Part shown: positions 14,293 to 38,695 of the stretch, one piece after another
Layout: each line of letters starts with the position of its first letter
Numbering within the stretch: position 1 is the first letter of the stretch
NCBI GenBank assembly: GCA_018830565.1
Contig: JAHJRX010000035.1
Location: forward strand, 1 to 38,695
Direction: 5' to 3'
From: a bacterium
Lineage (GTDB): Bacteria; UBA9089; JAHJRX01
DNA length: 38,695 bases
The notes under the pieces: model-generated
Told to the model about the DNA's origin: nothing
The model's input: the letters and a program-made list of their open reading frames with translations, nothing else
Databases searched by the model: none
Made by a program: the position numbers and the translations under genes

Positions 14293-15081
14293 ATGAATCT
14301 TATTATTCAAATTGGAAATAAAATTTTAGAATCTCTAAAAAATATTAACCAAATTATTCAATTACTTGTAGATGCTGTTATTTCTCTTTTTTATCTTCAA
14401 AAGAGTAGTTTAAGAGCAAACATGAATGTCCTCTTCTCCCAAATAAGGTTTACTGGAATAAATGCCTTACCCTTAGTTAATAAACTAGCGCTTCTTTTAG
14501 GAATAGTGGTCATTATCCAAGCAGCTACTTATTTACCAAAGATTGGTGCTTCTGACTATATTGGAAGCATTATCACCTTAGTTATTATTCGAGAATTAGG
14601 TCCCCTGATGGTAGCTTTTATCGTCATTGGCCGGTCAGGAACAGCTATTGCTACCGAACTATGTAGTATGAAGATTAACCATGAAATCAATGCTTTAGAA
14701 GTGATGGGTATTAATCCATATCAGTTTATCATTATTCCTCGGCTTTTGGGAGTAGCTATCTCTGTCTTTTGTCTGGTTGTCTATTTTGATGTGATTGCTT
14801 TGGGGGGTGGTTATCTGGTCTCTTATCTAAAGATAAAACTACCTCTAATTGCTTTTATGAGTGGACTAAAACAATCTCTGGCTTTGAAAGATTTAATCTT
14901 AAGTGGAGTTAAGGGTTTATTATTTGGCTTTACCATTGCCACGATTGGTTGTTATCAAGGGTTAATTATTAAAGGCTCGCTTACTGAGATACCCCAAGCA
15001 GCAACTAAGACAGTGGTTAGATCGATCTCAACTATCTTTTTCTTTAATAGTTTATTAGCTTTTATCTTCTATTATTCATAA
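14293..15081 (+). CDS. mlaE: MlaE-family ABC transporter permease (phospholipid/lipid asymmetry transporter permease)
   Basis: 262 aa with multiple TM segments and MlaE/Ttg2B-like conserved blocks. Followed directly by MlaF and MlaD homologs. Confidence 0.75.
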   Translation: MNLIIQIGNKILESLKNINQIIQLLVDAVISLFYLQKSSLRANMNVLFSQIRFTGINALPLVNKLALLLGIVVIIQAATYLPKIGASDYIGSIITLVIIRELGPLMVAFIVIGRSGTAIATELCSMKINHEINALEVMGINPYQFIIIPRLLGVAISVFCLVVYFDVIALGGGYLVSYLKIKLPLIAFMSGLKQSLALKDLILSGVKGLLFGFTIATIGCYQGLIIKGSLTEIPQAATKTVVRSISTIFFFNSLLAFIFYYS

Positions 15082-15100
15082 CTTTCTATTATTTATAACT

Positions 15101-15850
15101 ATGGACAAAGAAGCTATTATTCGTTTAGAGAGGGTCTTTTTAGAAGATCTCAAAGGAGGTTCTTTAAGAGAGATTACTTTAAGTATTTATCCCGGAGAAA
15201 TCTATGTCCTGACTGGCCCCACCGAAGCTGATAAAGTAACCTTCTTAAATCTTTGCTTAGGACTGATAAAACCTCAAGAAGGAGAAATCTTGGTAGGAGG
15301 TTATGATTTTAAAAGAGCTACTTACCACCAGCTCATAGATTATCGTCGTAAACTCCAAATTAGTTATATGGCTTACCCACCAGCTTTAATTAGTAATAGG
15401 TCGATCTTAAGTAACTTACTTCTTCCTTTGGAATACCACTTTCCTAAAGGCAATCATCTAAAAAGAACCAAAGAATTACTGGCTTTATTAGGGCTGTCTA
15501 AATATGAAGATAAATTACCATTTGAACTCTCTCTGGAAGAAAAAAGGTTGGTAGAATTAGCCAGAGCCTTAGTTAGTCAACCGCAGATTATCTTTTATCG
15601 CCAACCTTTAGAAAATTTTGACTCTTTTCTACAACAAAAGATTGTTAAGATCATTAAGCAGTATTCAGAAGAGATGAGTTGCACCAGTATAATTGTAGCT
15701 AATCATTGGCTGCCATTTATACCCATTGCTCATCGTTTTGGGATATTAGATCAGGGAAAGCTAATATACTGTGGTTCCCCAGAAGAGCTTTACGCTAGCA
15801 ATGAGCCACCAGTCCAGCAATTTATTAATATTCAAAAAACTATTAGTTAG
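15101..15850 (+). CDS. MlaF-like ABC nucleotide-binding subunit with degenerate catalytic motifs (probable pseudo-ATPase)
   Basis: Aligns along its length to MlaF. Walker A is GPTEADKVT (consensus GxxGxGKST). The signature is LSLEE (consensus LSGGQ). Walker B is IIFYRQP, so the DEP acidic pair is replaced by RQP. Confidence 0.7.
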   Translation: MDKEAIIRLERVFLEDLKGGSLREITLSIYPGEIYVLTGPTEADKVTFLNLCLGLIKPQEGEILVGGYDFKRATYHQLIDYRRKLQISYMAYPPALISNRSILSNLLLPLEYHFPKGNHLKRTKELLALLGLSKYEDKLPFELSLEEKRLVELARALVSQPQIIFYRQPLENFDSFLQQKIVKIIKQYSEEMSCTSIIVANHWLPFIPIAHRFGILDQGKLIYCGSPEELYASNEPPVQQFINIQKTIS

Positions 15851-15875
15851 CTATATGCCAAACAAGGAGATAATC

Positions 15876-16823
15876 ATGAATCTTGAAAGAAGATATAATT
15901 TTTTTGTAGGATTATTTGTCATTGTTGGATTATTAATCTTTGTAGGGGTAATCTTTATCACCTTCCAATCAAAGTTTATGAAGAAAGGTTACTACCTAAA
16001 GGTAAATTACCATAACCTTGGTGGTCTTCAAGAAGGAGATGAGATAACATTAGGAGGTTATCAAGTAGGACATTTAGACAAGATAGTCATGAGCTGTCAG
16101 CCAAAAGTTTATTTTAACTTATCCTTATTTATTGAAGAAGATGTAGTTATTCCTAAAGAGACGATCACTAAGATTGCCAGTAAAGGGCTGATTGGCCAAA
16201 AATATATTGAACTAATTCCACCTAAAGAGAGTAAAGGATTTCTTAAGCAAGGTGACCAGTTAAAAAGCCTGGAATTTGAAGGAGATGTTCTTTTAGCTAA
16301 AGCAGAAGAAGTAGCTGACAATTTTAACTTAGTCGCCAAAGATATCTCTGCTTTCTTCGAGGCTAATAAACTTAACCTGGCCTTAGACACCGTTAATAAA
16401 GAAGCTCAAGAAATAACGACTAACTTTAATCAGACTTTAAGTACCGTTAATAAAGAAGCTCAAGAAATAACGGCCAACTTTAATCTTCTTACTACAGAAG
16501 CAAAGGAAACTTTCCAGTTAGTCCAAAAAAACTTAATTAAGATTGAGCAAGTCATAGAAAGCTTTCAACAAACCACTAAAGATATTAGCCAGGCCACAGA
16601 GGTGGTATCTGGTCATAAAGAAGAAGTTACTAAAGTTATCTCTCAATTAGACCAGAATTTAATCTTGTTAAGTTCTGTTTTAGTTAATTTAAATGAAATT
16701 ACCAGCGAAAATAAGAGCCAAATTAAGAATATCCTCCAAAATTTAGAAGTTACCAGTAAAGAAGTTCAAGGCTTAGCCAAGGATTTAAAAGAAAGACCCT
16801 GGAGATTAATCAGGAAAGAATAA
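15876..16823 (+). CDS. mlaD: MlaD-like MCE-domain protein with a long C-terminal helical extension
   Basis: An AAGGAG ribosome-binding site precedes the ATG at 15876; the six-frame ORF from 15771 is an upstream in-frame extension. N-terminal TM, an MCE domain (YYLKVNYHNLGGLQEGDEITLGGYQVGHL...GLIGQKYIELIPP), then a ~170-aa predicted helical tail containing an 18-aa tandem repeat. Confidence 0.75.
   Translation: MNLERRYNFFVGLFVIVGLLIFVGVIFITFQSKFMKKGYYLKVNYHNLGGLQEGDEITLGGYQVGHLDKIVMSCQPKVYFNLSLFIEEDVVIPKETITKIASKGLIGQKYIELIPPKESKGFLKQGDQLKSLEFEGDVLLAKAEEVADNFNLVAKDISAFFEANKLNLALDTVNKEAQEITTNFNQTLSTVNKEAQEITANFNLLTTEAKETFQLVQKNLIKIEQVIESFQQTTKDISQATEVVSGHKEEVTKVISQLDQNLILLSSVLVNLNEITSENKSQIKNILQNLEVTSKEVQGLAKDLKERPWRLIRKE
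16389..16496 (+). repeat. in-frame 54-bp tandem duplication inside mlaD (TVNKEAQEIT[TA]NFN repeats)
   Basis: ACCGTTAATAAAGAAGCTCAAGAAATAACG.C.AACTTTAATC occurs twice with period 54. Confidence 0.8.
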
Positions 16824-16825
16824 TC

Positions 16826-16855
16826 TTGACATCGACTCTTTGATGTGGTTATATT
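16826..16855 (+). promoter_or_regulatory. candidate sigma70-like promoter with extended -10 (TTGACA-17-TGgTTATAT) upstream of the aminotransferase gene
   Basis: TTGACA at 16826-16831, a 17-nt spacer, TTATAT at 16849-16854 preceded by TGG, about 45 nt upstream of the ATG at 16899. An AGTGAGGAAA ribosome-binding site is present. Confidence 0.4.
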
Positions 16856-20923: not shown

Positions 20924-22159
20924 ATGAAATATGAATTATTGATTGCTTTTAGATATGTAACTTCTAAACAAGGAAAAAGATTTGTCTCTCTAATTACCCT
21001 TATCTCCATCTTAGGTGTAATTGTTGGCGTAATGTCTCTTAATATGGTTATTTCAGTCATGAATGGATTTGAAAAAGATCTTAAAGAAAAAATCTTAAGT
21101 AGTAATGCTCATATTTTTATCACTGATATTCAAAAAAAAGGAATTAGTAATTACCCTTTGCTTATGAGAAAGATTTCAAACTCAGAAGAAGATATTTTAG
21201 GCATTGCTCCTTTAGTTGAAGGTCAGGCAATTTTATGTTCTAAATATCAAGTAGCAGGAATAAGTTTATTGGGTGTAAACTTAGAATTAGAAGCTAATCT
21301 CACTAATCTAAAAAAAGATATCGTAGAAGGAAGATATGAATTTTACCCTCAAGAAAAAGGTATCATTATCGGCAAAGAATTAGCCTTGGCTCTTGGAGTT
21401 TCTGTAAATGAAAAAATTACCTTAATTTCTCCTAAATATAATAATCTTACTAACATCAAAGGCGAAAAAGATTTAGAACCTCATGTTGAAGATTTTGTGG
21501 TTAGCGGTATCTTTGCTTCAGGTATGTATGAATATGATAGAAGTAGGGCTTATATCTCTTTAAATAAAGCTGGTGAAATATTTGGCTTTCACCAAGATAT
21601 TTCTACCCTAACTATAAAAGTTTCAGATATCTATAAAGCAGAAGAGATAGCTAATAAGATTAGAAAAAAGATTGGTCTTTCTTATTGGGTTTATACTTGG
21701 ATGGAGTCTAATAAAAATTTATTTTCTGCTTTAGCCTTAGAAAAAATAGTCATGTTCTTAATATTAGCTTTGATTGTCTTTGTGGCGGCTTTTAATATCA
21801 CCGCCAGTTTAGTGATGACCGTCGTAGACAAGACTAAAGATATTGGCATCTTAAAGGCTTTAGGAGCAAGTCAGAAAAGCATTATGTCTATCTTTATCTT
21901 AAAAGGTTTCATTATTGGCTTGGCAGGAACGATATTAGGAACTATTTTAGGAATAACTGGTTCTCATTTGCTTTCTCATTATCAATTCATTAAACTACCC
22001 AGTGATATTTATTATATCAATTATTTACCTATTTGGATTCAAACTCAAGATGTAATTTATATATTTTTTTCCTCTGTCTTTTTATGTTTTTTAGCCACTA
22101 TCTATCCATCTATGAATGCCGCTAAACTAGACCCAGTAAAGGCTTTGGCTTATGAATAA
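20924..22159 (+). CDS. lolC: LolC/LolE-family lipoprotein-releasing ABC transporter permease (FtsX/MacB-type)
   Basis: N-terminal FRYVTSKQGKRFVSLITLISILGV, a large periplasmic domain, and a C-terminal FtsX-like four-TM region. 411 aa. Confidence 0.75.
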   Translation: MKYELLIAFRYVTSKQGKRFVSLITLISILGVIVGVMSLNMVISVMNGFEKDLKEKILSSNAHIFITDIQKKGISNYPLLMRKISNSEEDILGIAPLVEGQAILCSKYQVAGISLLGVNLELEANLTNLKKDIVEGRYEFYPQEKGIIIGKELALALGVSVNEKITLISPKYNNLTNIKGEKDLEPHVEDFVVSGIFASGMYEYDRSRAYISLNKAGEIFGFHQDISTLTIKVSDIYKAEEIANKIRKKIGLSYWVYTWMESNKNLFSALALEKIVMFLILALIVFVAAFNITASLVMTVVDKTKDIGILKALGASQKSIMSIFILKGFIIGLAGTILGTILGITGSHLLSHYQFIKLPSDIYYINYLPIWIQTQDVIYIFFSSVFLCFLATIYPSMNAAKLDPVKALAYE

Positions 22160-22838
22160 TAGTCTCTTTAAGGCTGTCAATATTTCTAGATCTTATCAAA
22201 CACCCCACGGAAGTCTTGAGATATTAAAAGATCTTAACTTTTCAGTTAATAAAAAGGAGGTAGTAGCTATTTGTGGTGTTTCTGGGGTAGGTAAAAGTAC
22301 TCTCTTGCATCTTTTAGGTACCTTAGATAGACCTGATCAAGGAAGTATCTTATTGGAGGAAAGGAATTTATTAATGCTCTCTGATAAAGAGTTAAATAAG
22401 TTTAGATGTGAAAAATTAGGATTTGTTTTTCAATTTCATTATCTACTTTCGGAATTTACAGCCTTAGAAAATGTAATTCTTCCTGGGCTCATTAAAGGAG
22501 AATCTAAGGATAAAATTGAAGAAAGAGCAAAAATCTTATTATCTAAACTAAACTTAAAAGAGAGATTTTTTCATAAACCTAAAGAGCTTTCTTTTGGTGA
22601 GCAACAAAGGGTAGCCATTGCCCGCTCTCTAATTAATGATCCAAAGATAATCTTAGCTGATGAACCTACGGGTAATTTAGATTCTCAAACCGCCAGAGAA
22701 GTCTTTAGCCTTCTTTATGAAATAGTTAAAGAAAACCATAAAATTTTAATATTTGTTACCCATAATGAAGAATTAGCTAAGAAGGCAGATAAAATTTTCT
22801 TTTTAAAGGAAGGAAAATTGTTTGAAACTAATCATTAA
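22152..22838 (+). CDS. lolD: LolD-type ABC ATP-binding subunit
   Basis: Intact Walker [10 protein letters not shown], signature [15 protein letters not shown], Walker [12 protein letters not shown]. Overlaps lolC by 8 nt. Confidence 0.8.
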
Positions 22839-23928: not shown

Positions 23929-24429
23929 GTGCTTTGTGATAATTGCCAGAAGGAGAAAGCTTCCCTTCATTACACTGAAGTTATTAATAATAGCTTAACA
24001 GAGATCCATTTATGTATGTCCTGTGCTCAAAAGAAAGGCTTGGATGATTCTTTTTCTCTTTCTTTTGCTAATCTCTTTACTGACCTAAGTTCTGACCTAA
24101 GTGAAGTTGGGGATATTAAAATTTCTTCTAAAAAGAAAGAAGGATGTAAGTGTTGTGGACTAACCCTTAATGACTTTAAAAAATTAGGTCTTTTTGGTTG
24201 TAGTGAGTGTTACGAAACCTTCTCTGCCAAGATTGAAAATATTTTGCAAAAAATTCATGGGGCTACTCATCACACCGGAAAAATACCTCGTCATATTTCT
24301 AAAGAGATCTCTTCCAAAAGAGAGATTATTAAATTGAGAGAAAAACTACAAAAAACAATAAAATTAGAAAAGTATGAAGAAGCTGCTAAAATAAGGGATA
24401 AACTAAAAAAATTGGAAGGAATAATTTAG
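23929..24429 (+). CDS. mcsA: McsA (protein-arginine kinase activator; zinc-finger plus UVR domain)
   Basis: Four CxxC pairs (CDNC, CMSC, CKCC, CSEC) and a C-terminal UVR motif YEEAAKIRDKLKKLE. GTG start with a GGAGG ribosome-binding site. Confidence 0.75.
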   Translation: MLCDNCQKEKASLHYTEVINNSLTEIHLCMSCAQKKGLDDSFSLSFANLFTDLSSDLSEVGDIKISSKKKEGCKCCGLTLNDFKKLGLFGCSECYETFSAKIENILQKIHGATHHTGKIPRHISKEISSKREIIKLREKLQKTIKLEKYEEAAKIRDKLKKLEGII

Positions 24430-24438
24430 TTAAAGTAG

Positions 24439-25473
24439 ATGAATACTTTTAGCTGTGATTGGTTAAAGAACAATACTCCTCACCGCGATATAGTGATCAG
24501 TAGCCGCATTCGTTTAGCCAGGAATGTAAACAAGATTCCCTTTCCTCATTGGGCGAAAAAAGAAAGTTTAAGAAAAGTGGTCTCTTTGGTCGAAGAAGCC
24601 ACAAAAAAGTGCCCTTATTTAATTAACTCTAAATATTATGATTTAGATAAATTAACCTCATTAGAAAAGCAGTACTTAATAGAAAGACATCTTATTAGTT
24701 TAGAACATGCCAATAGTAAAAATGGTCTGCTCATTGTTAGCCAGAAAGAGATGGGTAGCCTTATGGTCAACGAAGAAGATCATCTAAGAATTCAAAGCTT
24801 GGATGCAGGTTTAAACCTTTTCGAAGCTTGGGATCTTATTAATAAAATTGACGATTCTCTTTCCGAGGTATTGGATTACGCTATTTCTCCTCAATGGGGA
24901 TATTTAACGGCTTGTCCTACTAATGTAGGAACTGGAATAAGGGCTTCAATAATGATTCATCTACCAGCTCTTATCTTAACTGGACAAATAAATAAAGTAT
25001 TAAAAGGAGTTTCTCAATTAGGATTAACGATTAGAGGTTTATATGGAGAAGGGAGTGAAATCTTAGGAAATTTATTTCAAATATCTAATCAGATCACCTT
25101 AGGACGATCAGAAGAAGAGACCATTGATCATGTGGAAAAGATTTCAAAACAAATTATTAATTATGAAAAAAATGCCCAAGAATTGTTAATTAAAGAATCG
25201 GCTATTCAATTAGAAGATAAAACATTTAGAGCTTACGCTACCTTAACCCATGCTCGAGTTATTGATTCTAACGAAGCCATAAATCTTCTTTCTGTCGTAA
25301 GATTAGGGGTAAGCAGTGGCATATTAAAGGATATCTCCTTGGAAATTTTAAATGAACTTCTTGTTATTACTCAACCAGCTCATATTCAAAAATTTTTTAA
25401 CACTCCTCTTACTCCAGAACAGAGAGATGTAAAACGAGCAGAATTAATCAGAGAAAAATTTTCTATCACTTAA
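24439..25473 (+). CDS. mcsB: protein-arginine kinase McsB (phosphagen/guanidino kinase family)
   Basis: CPTNVGTGIRASIMIHLP matches the phosphagen-kinase active-site Cys block. 344 aa. Sits between mcsA and clpC. Confidence 0.8.
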   Translation: MNTFSCDWLKNNTPHRDIVISSRIRLARNVNKIPFPHWAKKESLRKVVSLVEEATKKCPYLINSKYYDLDKLTSLEKQYLIERHLISLEHANSKNGLLIVSQKEMGSLMVNEEDHLRIQSLDAGLNLFEAWDLINKIDDSLSEVLDYAISPQWGYLTACPTNVGTGIRASIMIHLPALILTGQINKVLKGVSQLGLTIRGLYGEGSEILGNLFQISNQITLGRSEEETIDHVEKISKQIINYEKNAQELLIKESAIQLEDKTFRAYATLTHARVIDSNEAINLLSVVRLGVSSGILKDISLEILNELLVITQPAHIQKFFNTPLTPEQRDVKRAELIREKFSIT

Positions 25474-25533
25474 AAGTTATTTTTAAATTTCAAATTAGCT
25501 AAAAACAATATCTTAAATTTGGAGGTAATATAT

Positions 25534-27981
25534 ATGTTTGAACGTTTTACGGAAAGGGCAAAAAGAGTTATTTCCCTTGCTCAAGAAGAAGCTAAAAAAT
25601 ATAAGCATAACTACATAGGTTCTGAACATTTACTTTTAGGTATCATCGATGAAGGAGAAGGAGTAGCGGCAGAAGTATTTAACAACTTAGATATTAATTT
25701 AGATAGCATTAAGATGGAGGTAGAAAAATTAGTTTCTCCAGGAGGGGGTGCTTTAACTTTAGGAGATGTTCCATTTACTCCTCATGCTAAGAAGGTCCTG
25801 GAGTTAGCCATAGAAGAAGCTCATCTCCTTAACCATAATTATGTAGGAACAGAACATATCTTATTAGGATTAGTAAAAGAAGAAGAGAGCGTAGCCGCTC
25901 GAATTTTATTAAATAAATTTAGTGCAGATTTAAACACCATCCGGGAAGAAATTTTAAAAATATTAGGAGGAACTGCCTTTCCTGTTACCTCTGCTCCTAA
26001 GAAGAAAAAGACCACCACTCCTGTTTTAGATGCTTTCTCCCGAGATTTAACGGAGTTAGCTAGGAATAACAAATTAGACCCGGTAATAGGCAGAGAGGAA
26101 GAGATTCAAAGAGTTATCCAAATCTTAGGTCGTCGAACTAAGAATAATCCTGTGTTTATTGGGGACCCTGGAGTAGGAAAGACGGCAATCGTAGAAGGAC
26201 TAGCTCAAAAAATTGTTCAAGGTCAAGTTCCAGAATCTTTAGCTAATCAACGAGTTGTTTCTTTAGATTTAGCCTCCATAGTAGCGGGAACAAAGTTTAG
26301 AGGTGAATTTGAAGAAAGATTAAAAAGAGTAATTAACGAAGTAAAACAATCTAAAGAGATCATTTTATTTATTGATGAAATGCATACCCTGGTAGGAGCA
26401 GGTGCCGCTGAAGGAGCAATTGACGCTGCCAGTATCTTAAAACCTGCCTTAGCCAGAGGAGAGCTTCAATGTATTGGAGCTACTACTTTAGATGAATATC
26501 GTAAATATGTAGAAAGAGATGTGGCCTTAGAGCGACGATTTCAACCTATTTATGTGGATGAACCAACTATTGAAGAAACTATTGAGATCTTAAAAGGATT
26601 AAGAGATCGTTACGAAGCTCACCATCGCATCGAGATTACCGATGAAGCCATTGAAACTGCCGCCAAGTTTTCGTATCGGTATATTTCTGACCGTTTCTTA
26701 CCTGATAAAGCTATAGATTTAATCGATGAGGCTAGCTCGCGAGCTAAGCTTCAACTTACTACCACTCCGGCCGATCTAAAAGATCTTGAAAAAGAAATTG
26801 AACAAGTCTCTAAAGAAAAAGAAGCTTCTATTAGTGAACAAGAATTTGAAAAAGCTGCCTCTTTTAGAGATAAAGAACGTCAGTTAAGAAAAAAATTAGA
26901 ACGAATAAGAAAGGAGTGGAAAAATAAACACGGCATTTCTGATCGCTCTGTAAAAGCAGAAGATATTGCTAATGTTCTCTCATCATGGACAGGTGTTCCC
27001 ATATGTAAATTAGTAGAAAGTGAATCTGAAAAATTACTCCGGATGGAAGAAGATCTTCATAAGAGAGTTATAGGACAAGATGAAGCGGTAACCATCATTA
27101 GTAAGGCTATTCGTAGATCTAGAACAGCCTTAAAAGATCCTTGTCGTCCCGCCGGTTCATTTATCTTTTTAGGACCTACCGGTGTGGGAAAGACAGAATT
27201 AGCTAAAGCCTTAGCTGAATTCCTCTTTGACGATGAAGAAGCTCTTATTCAAATAGATATGTCTGAATTTATGGAAAAATTTGCGGTTTCAAGGCTTACG
27301 GGTGCTCCTCCTGGATATGTAGGCTATGAAGAAGGAGGTGAACTTACCGAAAAAGTTAGAAGAAGGCCTTATTCGGTAATTCTCTTAGATGAGATAGAAA
27401 AAGCTCATCCTGATATATATAATATCCTTCTCCAAGTATTAGAAGATGGGCAGCTTACCGATAACTTAGGACATACTGTGGATTTTAGGAATACCGTGAT
27501 TATTATCACTTCTAATATAGGAGCTAGGGATATTTTATCTAATTCTGGCTTGGGCTTTCGTACTCCCGATGAAGAACGATCCTACGAAAAAATGAAAGAA
27601 AAAGTTACTTCAGAAACCAAGAAGATATTTACTCCTGAATTTATAAATCGGATTGATGAAATTATTGTCTTTCATCCTTTAAGTAAAAAAGAGATTGAAA
27701 AAATTGTGGCTATAAAGATTGAAGAACTAAATGAAAGATTGGAATCTCAGAATATCCAAATAGAATTAAGCAAGGAAGCAGCTAAGCATTTAGCTGAAAA
27801 AGGATATGATGTTGCTTATGGAGCTCGTCATTTAAGAAGAGTTATCCAAAAAGAAATTGAAGATCCTTTATCCGAAGATCTAATCAGAGGTAATCTTAAA
27901 GATAATGAAACTATCGTTATAACTATAGAAGATGGAAAACTTACTTTTAACAAGAAAGCTTCTTTAAGTCCCTCAAGATGA
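25534..27981 (+). CDS. clpC: AAA+ unfoldase ClpC (class III stress-response Clp ATPase)
   Basis: Starts [12 protein letters not shown] with a GGAGG ribosome-binding site; the ORF from 25519 is an in-frame extension. Two Clp-N repeats, two AAA modules (GDPGVGKT and GPTGVGKT), and a UVR-like linker. Confidence 0.85.
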
Positions 27982-37251: not shown

Positions 37252-38190
<939 letters not shown>

Positions 38191-38220
38191 TTATCTCCAT
38201 TTTATTAATTGATTTTCTGT

Positions 38221-38695
38221 TCAGGAAATACCTTTTTCTTTTAATATCCTTTCCCCTTCTCCAATTGGAATAAGACCTTCCAGTCTCATATCACTATCCA
38301 CCATAATCTTTACCAAATCTTTAAATCCTATCTTAGGTTGCCATTTCAACTTTTCTTTAGCTTTTGTAATATCTGCATGCAAAAATTCAACCTCTGTAGG
38401 TCTAAAGTATCTCATATCAATTTCTATGTAATCTTTCCAATTTAACCCCACATAAGAGAAAGCCTCTTGTAAAAATTCCTTTATTGAATGAGTCTGCCCT
38501 GTTCCAATTACATAATCATCTGGTTTGTCTTGCTGAAGCATCAACCACATTGCCTCCACATACTCTGGAGCATACCCCCAATCTCGTTTTGCTTCTAAGT
38601 TACCTAAGTATATCTTTTCTTGTTTTCCGGATAAAATCTTAGCAATACCCCTGGTTATCTTGCGGGTAACAAAGGTTTCACCCCTTCTCGGCGAC
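38221..38695 (-). CDS. gmd: GDP-mannose 4,6-dehydratase, 3' part (5' end lies beyond the window)
   Basis: The frame stays open to the window edge. Translation ...[70 protein letters not shown] matches Gmd C-terminal blocks. Confidence 0.85.

Follow-up and report, generated by a model that had tools for sequence, protein, structure and literature searches.

A degenerate MlaF-like protein conserved within a minimal mlaE–mlaF–mlaD operon of a diderm bacterium

The mlaE–mlaF–mlaD locus

The DNA described here is a 38.7-kb stretch of bacterial sequence, referred to as the window, to which all coordinates below apply. It has a G+C content of 34% and carries three tightly spaced genes, mlaE, an mlaF-like gene and mlaD, at positions 14293–16823 of the forward strand. 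The middle gene is the main subject of this account, as its product is built like the ATP-binding cassette (ABC) ATPase MlaF and departs from the consensus in every catalytic motif of a competent ABC ATPase, with the sole exception of the H-loop histidine. An initial annotation of the same DNA had proposed a catalytically degenerate MlaF inside an operon, and apart from this gene the operon is indeed intact.

The first gene (14293–15081, forward strand) encodes MlaE, a permease of 262 amino acids that matches PF02405 with 217 bits. The second (15101–15850, forward strand) encodes a protein of 249 amino acids, which is described here as a putative MlaF-like pseudo-ATPase. The third (15876–16823, forward strand) encodes a long MlaD of 315 amino acids, with a PF02470 domain at residues 37–116 and a match to the MCE family model TIGR00996 that extends over residues 14–291.

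Fold and motifs of the mlaF-like protein

The ABC_tran domain PF00005 is recognised in the mlaF-like protein with 57.8 bits against a cut-off of 25, and the AlphaFold2 model, calculated from a 70-sequence alignment, has a pLDDT of 94.5 and a pTM of 0.90. When this model was compared with the PDB using Foldseek, the top match was E. coli MlaF (6xgz_C; TM-score 0.89, root-mean-square deviation 1.9 Å), followed by further chains of MlaF and by the Mce1 ATPase of mycobacteria, and all 50 of the top matches listed are nucleotide-binding domains (NBDs) of ABC proteins. Matches by sequence to the PDB include the MlaF chains 7d06_B and 6z5u_K, at ranks 4 and 5. The MlaF equivalog model NF008809 (PRK11831) gives 81.1 bits, which is below its cut-off of 441, and it is outscored on this protein by models of unrelated NBDs such as FtsE (106.6 bits). 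The protein is therefore an MlaF in the broad sense of the term, defined by its synteny with MlaE and an MCE gene and by a fold that is closest to the solved MlaF structures.

The catalytic motifs were read directly from the sequence and then placed by alignment to canonical NBDs, among them E. coli MlaF, and where it matters the conclusions were cross-checked against PDB chains. The Walker A motif (residues 39–47; 15215–15241) reads GPTEADKVT, so that in comparison with the consensus GxxGxGK[ST] the second and third glycines are replaced by acidic residues (G42 to Glu and G44 to Asp) and the Ser/Thr at position 46 is a valine, whilst the first glycine (G39) and the lysine (K45) are kept. Within the Q-loop region (QISYMAYPP, residues 86–94; 15356–15382) the glutamine that appears as FQ in canonical MlaF is gone, and there is an insertion of two residues that is found throughout the clade described below. 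The ABC signature is LSLEEK (residues 143–148; 15527–15544) where canonical MlaF has LSGGM(A/K/R). Walker B is IIFYRQP (residues 163–169; 15587–15607), in which, relative to hhhhDE, the Mg-binding aspartate has become R167 (an asparagine in the orthologues) and the catalytic glutamate has become Q168. The D-loop is ENFD and not the consensus SGLD. The H-loop region (IIVANH, residues 197–202; 15689–15706) retains its histidine, H202, a residue that is Asn or Asp in three orthologues. All of these motifs lie on the forward strand. The altered Walker A, the replacement of LSGGQ by LSLEE and the absence of a catalytic glutamate from the Walker B sequence YRQP had all been pointed out in the initial annotation and stand after alignment; the changes to the Q-loop and D-loop, and the retention of the H-loop histidine, go beyond it.

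The functional roles of these residues are well established in ABC ATPases. Mg-ATP is bound by the glycines and the Ser/Thr of the P-loop together with the Walker B aspartate and the Q-loop glutamine, the Walker B glutamate activates the water molecule, and the LSGGQ signature clamps ATP across the dimer. With the P-loop glycines and Ser/Thr, both acidic residues of Walker B, the Q-loop glutamine and LSGGQ all lost, a complex containing this subunit would be unable to run an ATP-hydrolysis cycle. From the same residues, it is probable that the protein encoded in the window cannot bind Mg-ATP at all.

According to the initial annotation, the protein aligns to MlaF outside the motifs, up to and including a helical C-terminal extension in contact with the partner subunit. 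This last point is wrong. Residues 24–243 align to residues 26–245 of the 269 in E. coli MlaF, just six residues are left beyond the aligned region, and the E. coli-type extension is missing. In E. coli this C-terminal ‘handshake’ extension comprises residues 247–269, about 25 amino acids (PMC7367683).

A further observation concerns the start of the gene. There is no Shine-Dalgarno-like sequence in the 19 nucleotides upstream of the mlaF start codon (15082–15100; TAACTTTCTATTATTTATAACT-ATG), whereas mlaE is preceded by AGAGG and mlaD by the ribosome-binding site AAGGAG, with its ATG at 15876. Translation of the degenerate subunit may differ from that of the genes on either side.

Conservation of the altered motifs and selection

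The identical mlaF-like protein is encoded on at least nine contigs. The six that are listed stem from different assemblies, namely two NCBI metagenome-assembled genomes (MAGs), two ENA assemblies, one JGI metagenome from Aspo and one Logan run, and the matching contigs as a whole come from groundwater and subsurface metagenomes, including Aspo. Between these identical-protein contigs and the window the mlaF gene differs by 0–1 nucleotides, the changes being synonymous, and in a 99%-identical strain there are 12 nucleotide differences, 8 of which are synonymous. A sequencing error or frameshift, which the initial annotation had named as one possible origin of the altered motifs, is rejected because the same protein is recovered from independent assemblies with such synonymous variation. 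Orthologues with canonical motifs at the same locus, which the initial annotation had named as a further ground against its reading, were likewise not found.

The closest homologues of MlaE (65–70% identity) are on three short Logan contigs, each of which has an NBD gene directly downstream. The MlaF orthologues encoded by these genes are 58–63% identical to the window protein and, together with the window species, they form the clade of four lineages that is compared here. The orthologue P0002 (contig L001) has the Walker A sequence GPIGAGKTV, the signature LSTEE and the H-loop TNN; the orthologue on L051 has GPTSAEKTA, LSVEE and GIND, and that on L052 has SDTSADKTT, LLDEE and TNN. All three share the Walker B sequence IIFYNQP, alongside IIFYRQP in the window, where the H-loop is ANH.

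The motifs differ greatly in how well they are conserved. Six of the seven Walker B residues are invariant in the four lineages, in their altered form, as are four of the six signature residues, E146, E147 and K148 among them, so that the altered signature and Walker B rank among the most conserved stretches of the clade. The altered Q-loop is common to all members. Walker A is the least conserved motif, with two invariant residues out of nine (A43 and K45), and ranges from canonical in P0002 to unrecognisable. Such a pattern, in which Walker B and the signature are fixed whilst Walker A drifts, would be expected if nucleotide binding had become dispensable and the surface was still important. 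It also suggests an order of events. The catalytic glutamate, the Mg-binding aspartate, the Q-loop glutamine and the signature glycines would already have been lost in the common ancestor, the P-loop, freed from selection for nucleotide binding, would then have drifted, and the former ATP-clamping surface would have become fixed in a new acidic form. The initial annotation had regarded degeneracy shared by orthologues as the mark of a functional pseudo-enzyme, and it is indeed shared by all three.

Estimates of dN/dS (the ratio of non-synonymous to synonymous substitution rates) by the method of Nei and Gojobori are 0.06–0.17 for MlaF and 0.07–0.15 for MlaE across the four lineages, far from neutrality, although the values are approximate because dS is near saturation between clade members. 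On these figures the mlaF-like gene is under purifying selection. They also bear on the possibility that the operon is simply being lost in one lineage and that the reading frame is a pseudogene that has yet to be disrupted. Such decay would fit with the rarity of the clade, which consists of one species and three short Logan contigs and gained no further members in a metagenome scan, and with the slightly faster evolution of MlaF in comparison with MlaE. It is at odds with a reading frame preserved without disruption in four lineages whose identity has fallen to about 60%, with the low dN/dS, with a confidently predicted fold and with strain variants that are mostly synonymous. Pseudogene decay was rejected on the combination of low dN/dS and the conservation of the altered motifs themselves, and is considered to be largely refuted. 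With regard to distribution, a scan of GTDB genomes with the mlaF-like protein returned only generic ABC ATPases, whose identity across most of the protein did not exceed 30%; the species is apparently missing from that set of representative genomes. A metagenome scan with the clade profile added one same-species contig (Ga0180008) and no new members of the degenerate clade.

The RYH-type MlaF subfamily

Relatives outside the clade were gathered from an exhaustive search of representative sequences and from a profile search; as the top of the representative list consists mostly of two-domain ABC proteins, the single-domain relatives were used. The nearest of these, at 30–38% identity, have the sequence ALPLRYH in the place where canonical MlaF has AxPLREHT, and this motif is used here to define an uncharacterised subfamily termed RYH-type. 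None of the RYH-type relatives has LSGG. In a simple neighbour-joining tree, calculated without support values, the degenerate clade nests inside the RYH-type group and apart from the LSGG-type MlaFs, which include that of E. coli. The clade shares with the subfamily the sequence LPL(E/K)YH, the absence of LSGG, the operon layout and the helical MlaD. The subfamily signature has the form LS[MIFL]G[QE]x. The clade differs from most RYH-type members, in which Walker A, the DE pair of Walker B and the H-loop histidine are intact and the signature is LS[MIF]GQ[RK], and the window has no TPR gene after mlaD.

Several RYH-type members have lost catalytic motifs of their own, apparently independently of one another. 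P0297 (L100:335–1078) combines a Walker A of AASGSGKSL with the signature LSLEMQ and the Walker B LLLLDQP and has no H-loop histidine, and P0320 (L101:217–891) has the Walker A lysine replaced by leucine and the signature LSEECK. Walker A is APSGSHKSD in P0224 and GANESGKST in P0205, with the signatures LTPNIK and LSYNKR, respectively, and the signature is LSAAQS in P0372 (L057:5883–6611) and CTAAQA in P0400. This repeated erosion suggests that ATP hydrolysis has been repeatedly dispensable in this subtype of MCE system.

The three RYH-type neighbourhoods that were examined contain mlaE, mlaF, mlaD (with the Pfam Helical_needle domain in two of the three) and a TPR gene, with one NBD gene and one MlaE gene in each. 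On the short contigs of P0297 and P0320 mlaF is followed by the mlaD-needle gene, and in L101 by a TPR gene as well. Immediately before the NBD gene there is a metallo-beta-lactamase-like fragment in L100:1–2419 and non-coding sequence in L101:1–2874, and in neither is it mlaE; as both contigs are short, the mlaE of these lineages could be elsewhere.

The composite ATP site and possible partners

Within the head-to-tail dimer that NBDs form, each ATP site is composed of the Walker A, Walker B, Q-loop and H-loop of one subunit and the signature of the other. This geometry has consequences for the heterodimeric NBD pair raised in the initial annotation. In such a pair the degenerate subunit would share the MlaE dimer with an active MlaF-like ATPase from another locus, and transport would be powered through a single functional site. 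Many ABC transporters are asymmetric, one of their sites being degenerate, and in TM287/288, TmrAB, TAP1/2, CFTR and ABCB11 there are likewise NBDs that lack the catalytic glutamate and/or the consensus signature and are still functional parts of the transporter. In these pairs the degenerate residues meet in one composite site and the other remains active, whereas the single NBD gene of the window has lost both sides, the Walker A, Walker B and Q-loop side (H-loop histidine aside) as well as the signature side, and its MlaE is homodimeric. Either composite site would thus be non-consensus, and because both halves are gone no partner ATPase could restore a consensus site. Furthermore, each operon of the four clade members, like every related subfamily operon examined, has exactly one gene for an NBD and no more than one for MlaE. 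Apart from the mlaF-like protein, the window encodes a single ABC ATPase, a LolD-like NBD (22152–22838), which serves as an internal control with a PF00005 score of 110.4 bits and a canonical GxxGxGKS P-loop, and which adjoins its own FtsX/MacB-type permease. On this geometry, and as far as the operons examined and the 38.7-kb window go, a heterodimeric arrangement is regarded as distinctly unlikely.

A second possibility is that the subunit still binds nucleotide, or hydrolyses it weakly, through non-canonical residues and acts as a regulatory ATP/ADP sensor that gates the channel. The invariance of K45, the canonical GxxGxGKT P-loop of P0002 and the H-loop histidine of the window protein are all compatible with this idea. 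It is also known that Glu-to-Gln variants of Walker B in ABC proteins typically still bind ATP, and one entry among the PDB fold matches listed, 7cgn, is a structure of such an EQ MlaF. Yet in the window protein two acidic residues take the place of the P-loop glycines and there is no Ser/Thr, the Walker B aspartate that holds Mg2+ is Arg or Asn, and the Q-loop glutamine and the signature are gone in every member of the clade. Moreover, Walker A being the least conserved motif of the clade argues that nucleotide binding is not under selection. A sensor of this kind is seen as highly improbable.

MlaE, the long MlaD and the type of system

In contrast to its NBD partner, MlaE is apparently fully functional on the basis of its sequence. 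Of the 55 positions with at least 90% conservation among 116 homologues, 52 are retained in this protein, and these include the stretch E131, A134, L135, G139, P149 and R150, which is interpreted as the NBD-coupling helix because its pattern resembles an EAA loop. The MlaD protein is laid out as an N-terminal hydrophobic segment, which is a probable membrane anchor, followed by the MCE domain and a long helical C-terminal region; subfamily homologues of this MlaD match the Pfam model Helical_needle. No C-terminal beta-barrel was found in it by the Pfam scan, no search having been aimed at barrels.

The helical ‘needle’ of MlaD contains two copies of a 54-bp (18-residue) direct repeat with the sequence TVNKEAQEIT.NFNQTLS (16389–16484, forward strand), which was not reported by Tandem Repeats Finder. 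A 98%-identical strain has three copies (L002:10776–11774; MlaD of 333 amino acids), and the repeat is absent or reduced in the orthologue on L051, whose MlaD is 51% identical. The difference in copy number indicates that the periplasm-spanning helix of MlaD varies in length between strains.

These features could be understood if MlaFED were a structural tether, that is an envelope-spanning anchor or scaffold in which the MlaD needle joins the membranes and MlaFE anchors it, with no need for lipid flux. The loss of the ATPase with retention of all three genes would be explained, as would a long helical MlaD whose length is altered by repeat copy number, and the degenerate NBDs P0297 and P0320, whose short contigs have mlaD-needle and TPR genes beside the NBD gene and no mlaE immediately before it, can be read in the same way. 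The preservation of nearly all the highly conserved positions of MlaE, charged and polar residues included, would however be unexpected in a mere anchor, and no precedent was found for an MCE complex that does not transport. A purely structural role is hence thought unlikely.

The host can be recognised as a diderm bacterium, since the window also encodes a GT9 (lipopolysaccharide) heptosyltransferase family protein, a LolCE-like permease, which is accompanied by the canonical LolD-like ATPase, and a TonB-dependent-receptor-like barrel; a large TPR/YfiO-like protein is encoded as well. No STAS (MlaB) gene was seen in the operon or in roughly 10 kb of sequence to each side of it, and there is no MlaC or MlaA gene near mlaE–mlaF–mlaD in the window. 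The initial annotation spoke simply of an Mla complex, which is imprecise, as the system is not of the E. coli kind. A minimal MlaEFD type has been described in which MlaD is elongated by a helical region and ends in an outer-membrane beta-barrel (Grasekamp et al. 2023, PMC10665443). As far as the layout and the 315-residue, helical-tailed MlaD go, the system in the window matches this minimal MlaEFD, long-MlaD type.

A close parallel within that type is the system of Veillonella parvula, which has the same three genes without mlaA, mlaB or mlaC in a diderm host (Grasekamp et al. 2023, PMC10665443). Both systems have an MlaD that is far longer than that of E. coli and has an extended alpha-helical region; they differ in the length of MlaD, 419 amino acids in V. 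parvula against 315 here, and in the catalytic degeneracy of the MlaF in the window. The MlaFEDB complexes of E. coli, A. baumannii and P. aeruginosa (PDB 6xgz, 6xbd, 7d06 and 7ch8) have the same fold and NBD architecture, the same position of the gene beside mlaE and mlaD and a ‘PL.EH/YH’ region in common with the window protein. In comparison with MlaF of the MlaFEDB type, the Walker A, Q-loop, signature, Walker B and D-loop (ENFD) of the window protein are non-consensus, and the system lacks both the C-terminal ‘handshake’ extension and MlaB.

A proposed ATP-independent system

The reading favoured here, and considered on balance to be probable, is that the protein is a folded, selected and non-catalytic MlaF, a pseudo-ATPase, that scaffolds MlaE, and that the minimal MlaE–MlaF–MlaD system is independent of ATP. 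This corresponds to one of three readings offered in the initial annotation, in which the system was passive or equilibrative, whereas the second ATPase offered there is weakened by the geometry of the ABC site and by the single-NBD operons. Such a system would probably move or hold lipids without ATP hydrolysis. The pseudo-ATPase would dock as a dimer on the MlaE dimer and hold it in a defined state, making MlaFE a static or thermally gated port in the inner membrane. Phospholipid could then pass through the MlaD hexamer and the helical tunnel down its own gradient, either as equilibrative transport or as a lipid bridge. At the former ATP site the acidic signature (LSxEE) would face the Walker A lysine K45, and in the window R167 as well, and one can speculate that a direct protein contact there holds the dimer in one state.

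A more far-reaching version of this proposal, in which the ATP ‘glue’ has been replaced by contacts of Lys45, and in the window Arg167, with Glu146 and Glu147 of the partner subunit, the MlaF dimer is locked and the conduit is constitutively open and equilibrative, with the whole RYH-type subfamily in the course of leaving ATP dependence through repeated independent losses of catalysis, is at present doubtful. If it were true, these systems would be natural intermediates between ABC-driven Mla and the ATPase-less LetAB and PqiABC.

An MlaFED that works without ATP is made plausible by three lines of earlier work. Phospholipid exchange between E. coli MlaFEDB and MlaC is spontaneous and bidirectional in the absence of ATP, with hydrolysis only imposing direction (bioRxiv 10.1101/2021.05.25.445566). 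LetAB and PqiABC are MCE systems that lack an ATPase altogether, and it is unresolved whether they operate passively or are energised by the proton motive force (PMC13017536). Finally, the long MlaD of minimal MlaEFD systems has been proposed to bridge the envelope (PMC10665443).

A number of points weigh against an ATP-independent system. Foremost among them, E. coli MlaF mutants in Walker A and Walker B fail to complement (PMC7367683), which means that the use of ATP is essential in the sole well-studied system. The MlaF/MlaE identity ratio within the clade is 0.85–0.92, so that MlaF evolves modestly faster than MlaE, which indicates some relaxation of constraint, and the dN/dS values set against it carry the imprecision of a near-saturated dS. 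The retention of K45, of H202 in the window and of a canonical P-loop in P0002 means that some members may still bind nucleotide. The clade is small, a second MlaF or MCE system was looked for in the operons and the 38.7-kb window, and all of the evidence is computational, drawn from sequences of uncultured MAGs and short contigs.

Relation to other transporters and wider meaning

The degenerate NBDs known so far belong to asymmetric pairs in which one site remains active. Full-text literature searches turned up neither a degenerate MlaF nor an ABC NBD in which both sites are dead, and as far as these searches show, a fully degenerate NBD that comes from the only NBD gene of an ABC-type operon, and is therefore expected to pair with itself, is an undescribed case. 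The nearest functional analogy is provided by LetAB and PqiABC, which are MCE lipid conduits without an ABC ATPase. Their membrane subunits LetA and PqiA are, however, unrelated to MlaE and the systems have no NBD, whereas the window encodes an MlaE (PF02405) and a degenerate NBD and so keeps the ABC architecture.

The direction of lipid transport by Mla and other MCE systems, and the contribution that ATP hydrolysis makes to it, are the subject of a long-running dispute. If the favoured reading is right, the locus would represent a natural motor-dead system that has persisted over long evolutionary time with MlaE, MlaD and the MlaF fold still under selection, and would offer a ready-made ‘no-hydrolysis’ MlaFED in which the behaviour of an MCE port that receives no energy could be studied. 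The analysis also draws attention to an MlaF subfamily, as yet uncharacterised, in which catalytic motifs have been lost repeatedly. With respect to annotation, it is a caution that a protein labelled ‘ABC transporter ATP-binding protein’ on the strength of PF00005 can turn out to be a pseudo-ATPase.

Further features of the window

An Rfam scan of the window gave no matches, and a terminator scan detected no intrinsic terminator 3′ of mlaD. Directly after the mlaD stop codon there is a near-consensus sigma-70-like promoter (16826–16855, forward strand; TTGACA and TATATT separated by 18 nucleotides, with 11 of 12 matches), the position of which suggests separate transcription for the aminotransferase gene that follows.

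Towards the start of the window, an open reading frame of 327 amino acids on the reverse strand (160–1143) joins an IS200-like Y1 transposase domain (PF01797) to the C-terminal helix-turn-helix domain of DnaA (PF08299), and the same gene is found at the same place on a second contig (L099). A cluster of genes for a McsA-like (UVR) protein, the McsB arginine kinase and ClpC is present at 23929–27981 on the forward strand, within what is otherwise a diderm-type genome. Finally, in the region 37252–38559 on the reverse strand, an open reading frame of 112 amino acids matches the C-terminal third of GDP-mannose 4,6-dehydratase alone (PF16363 positions 231–332). It directly adjoins a full-length NAD-dependent epimerase/dehydratase gene and may be a gene fragment or remnant.

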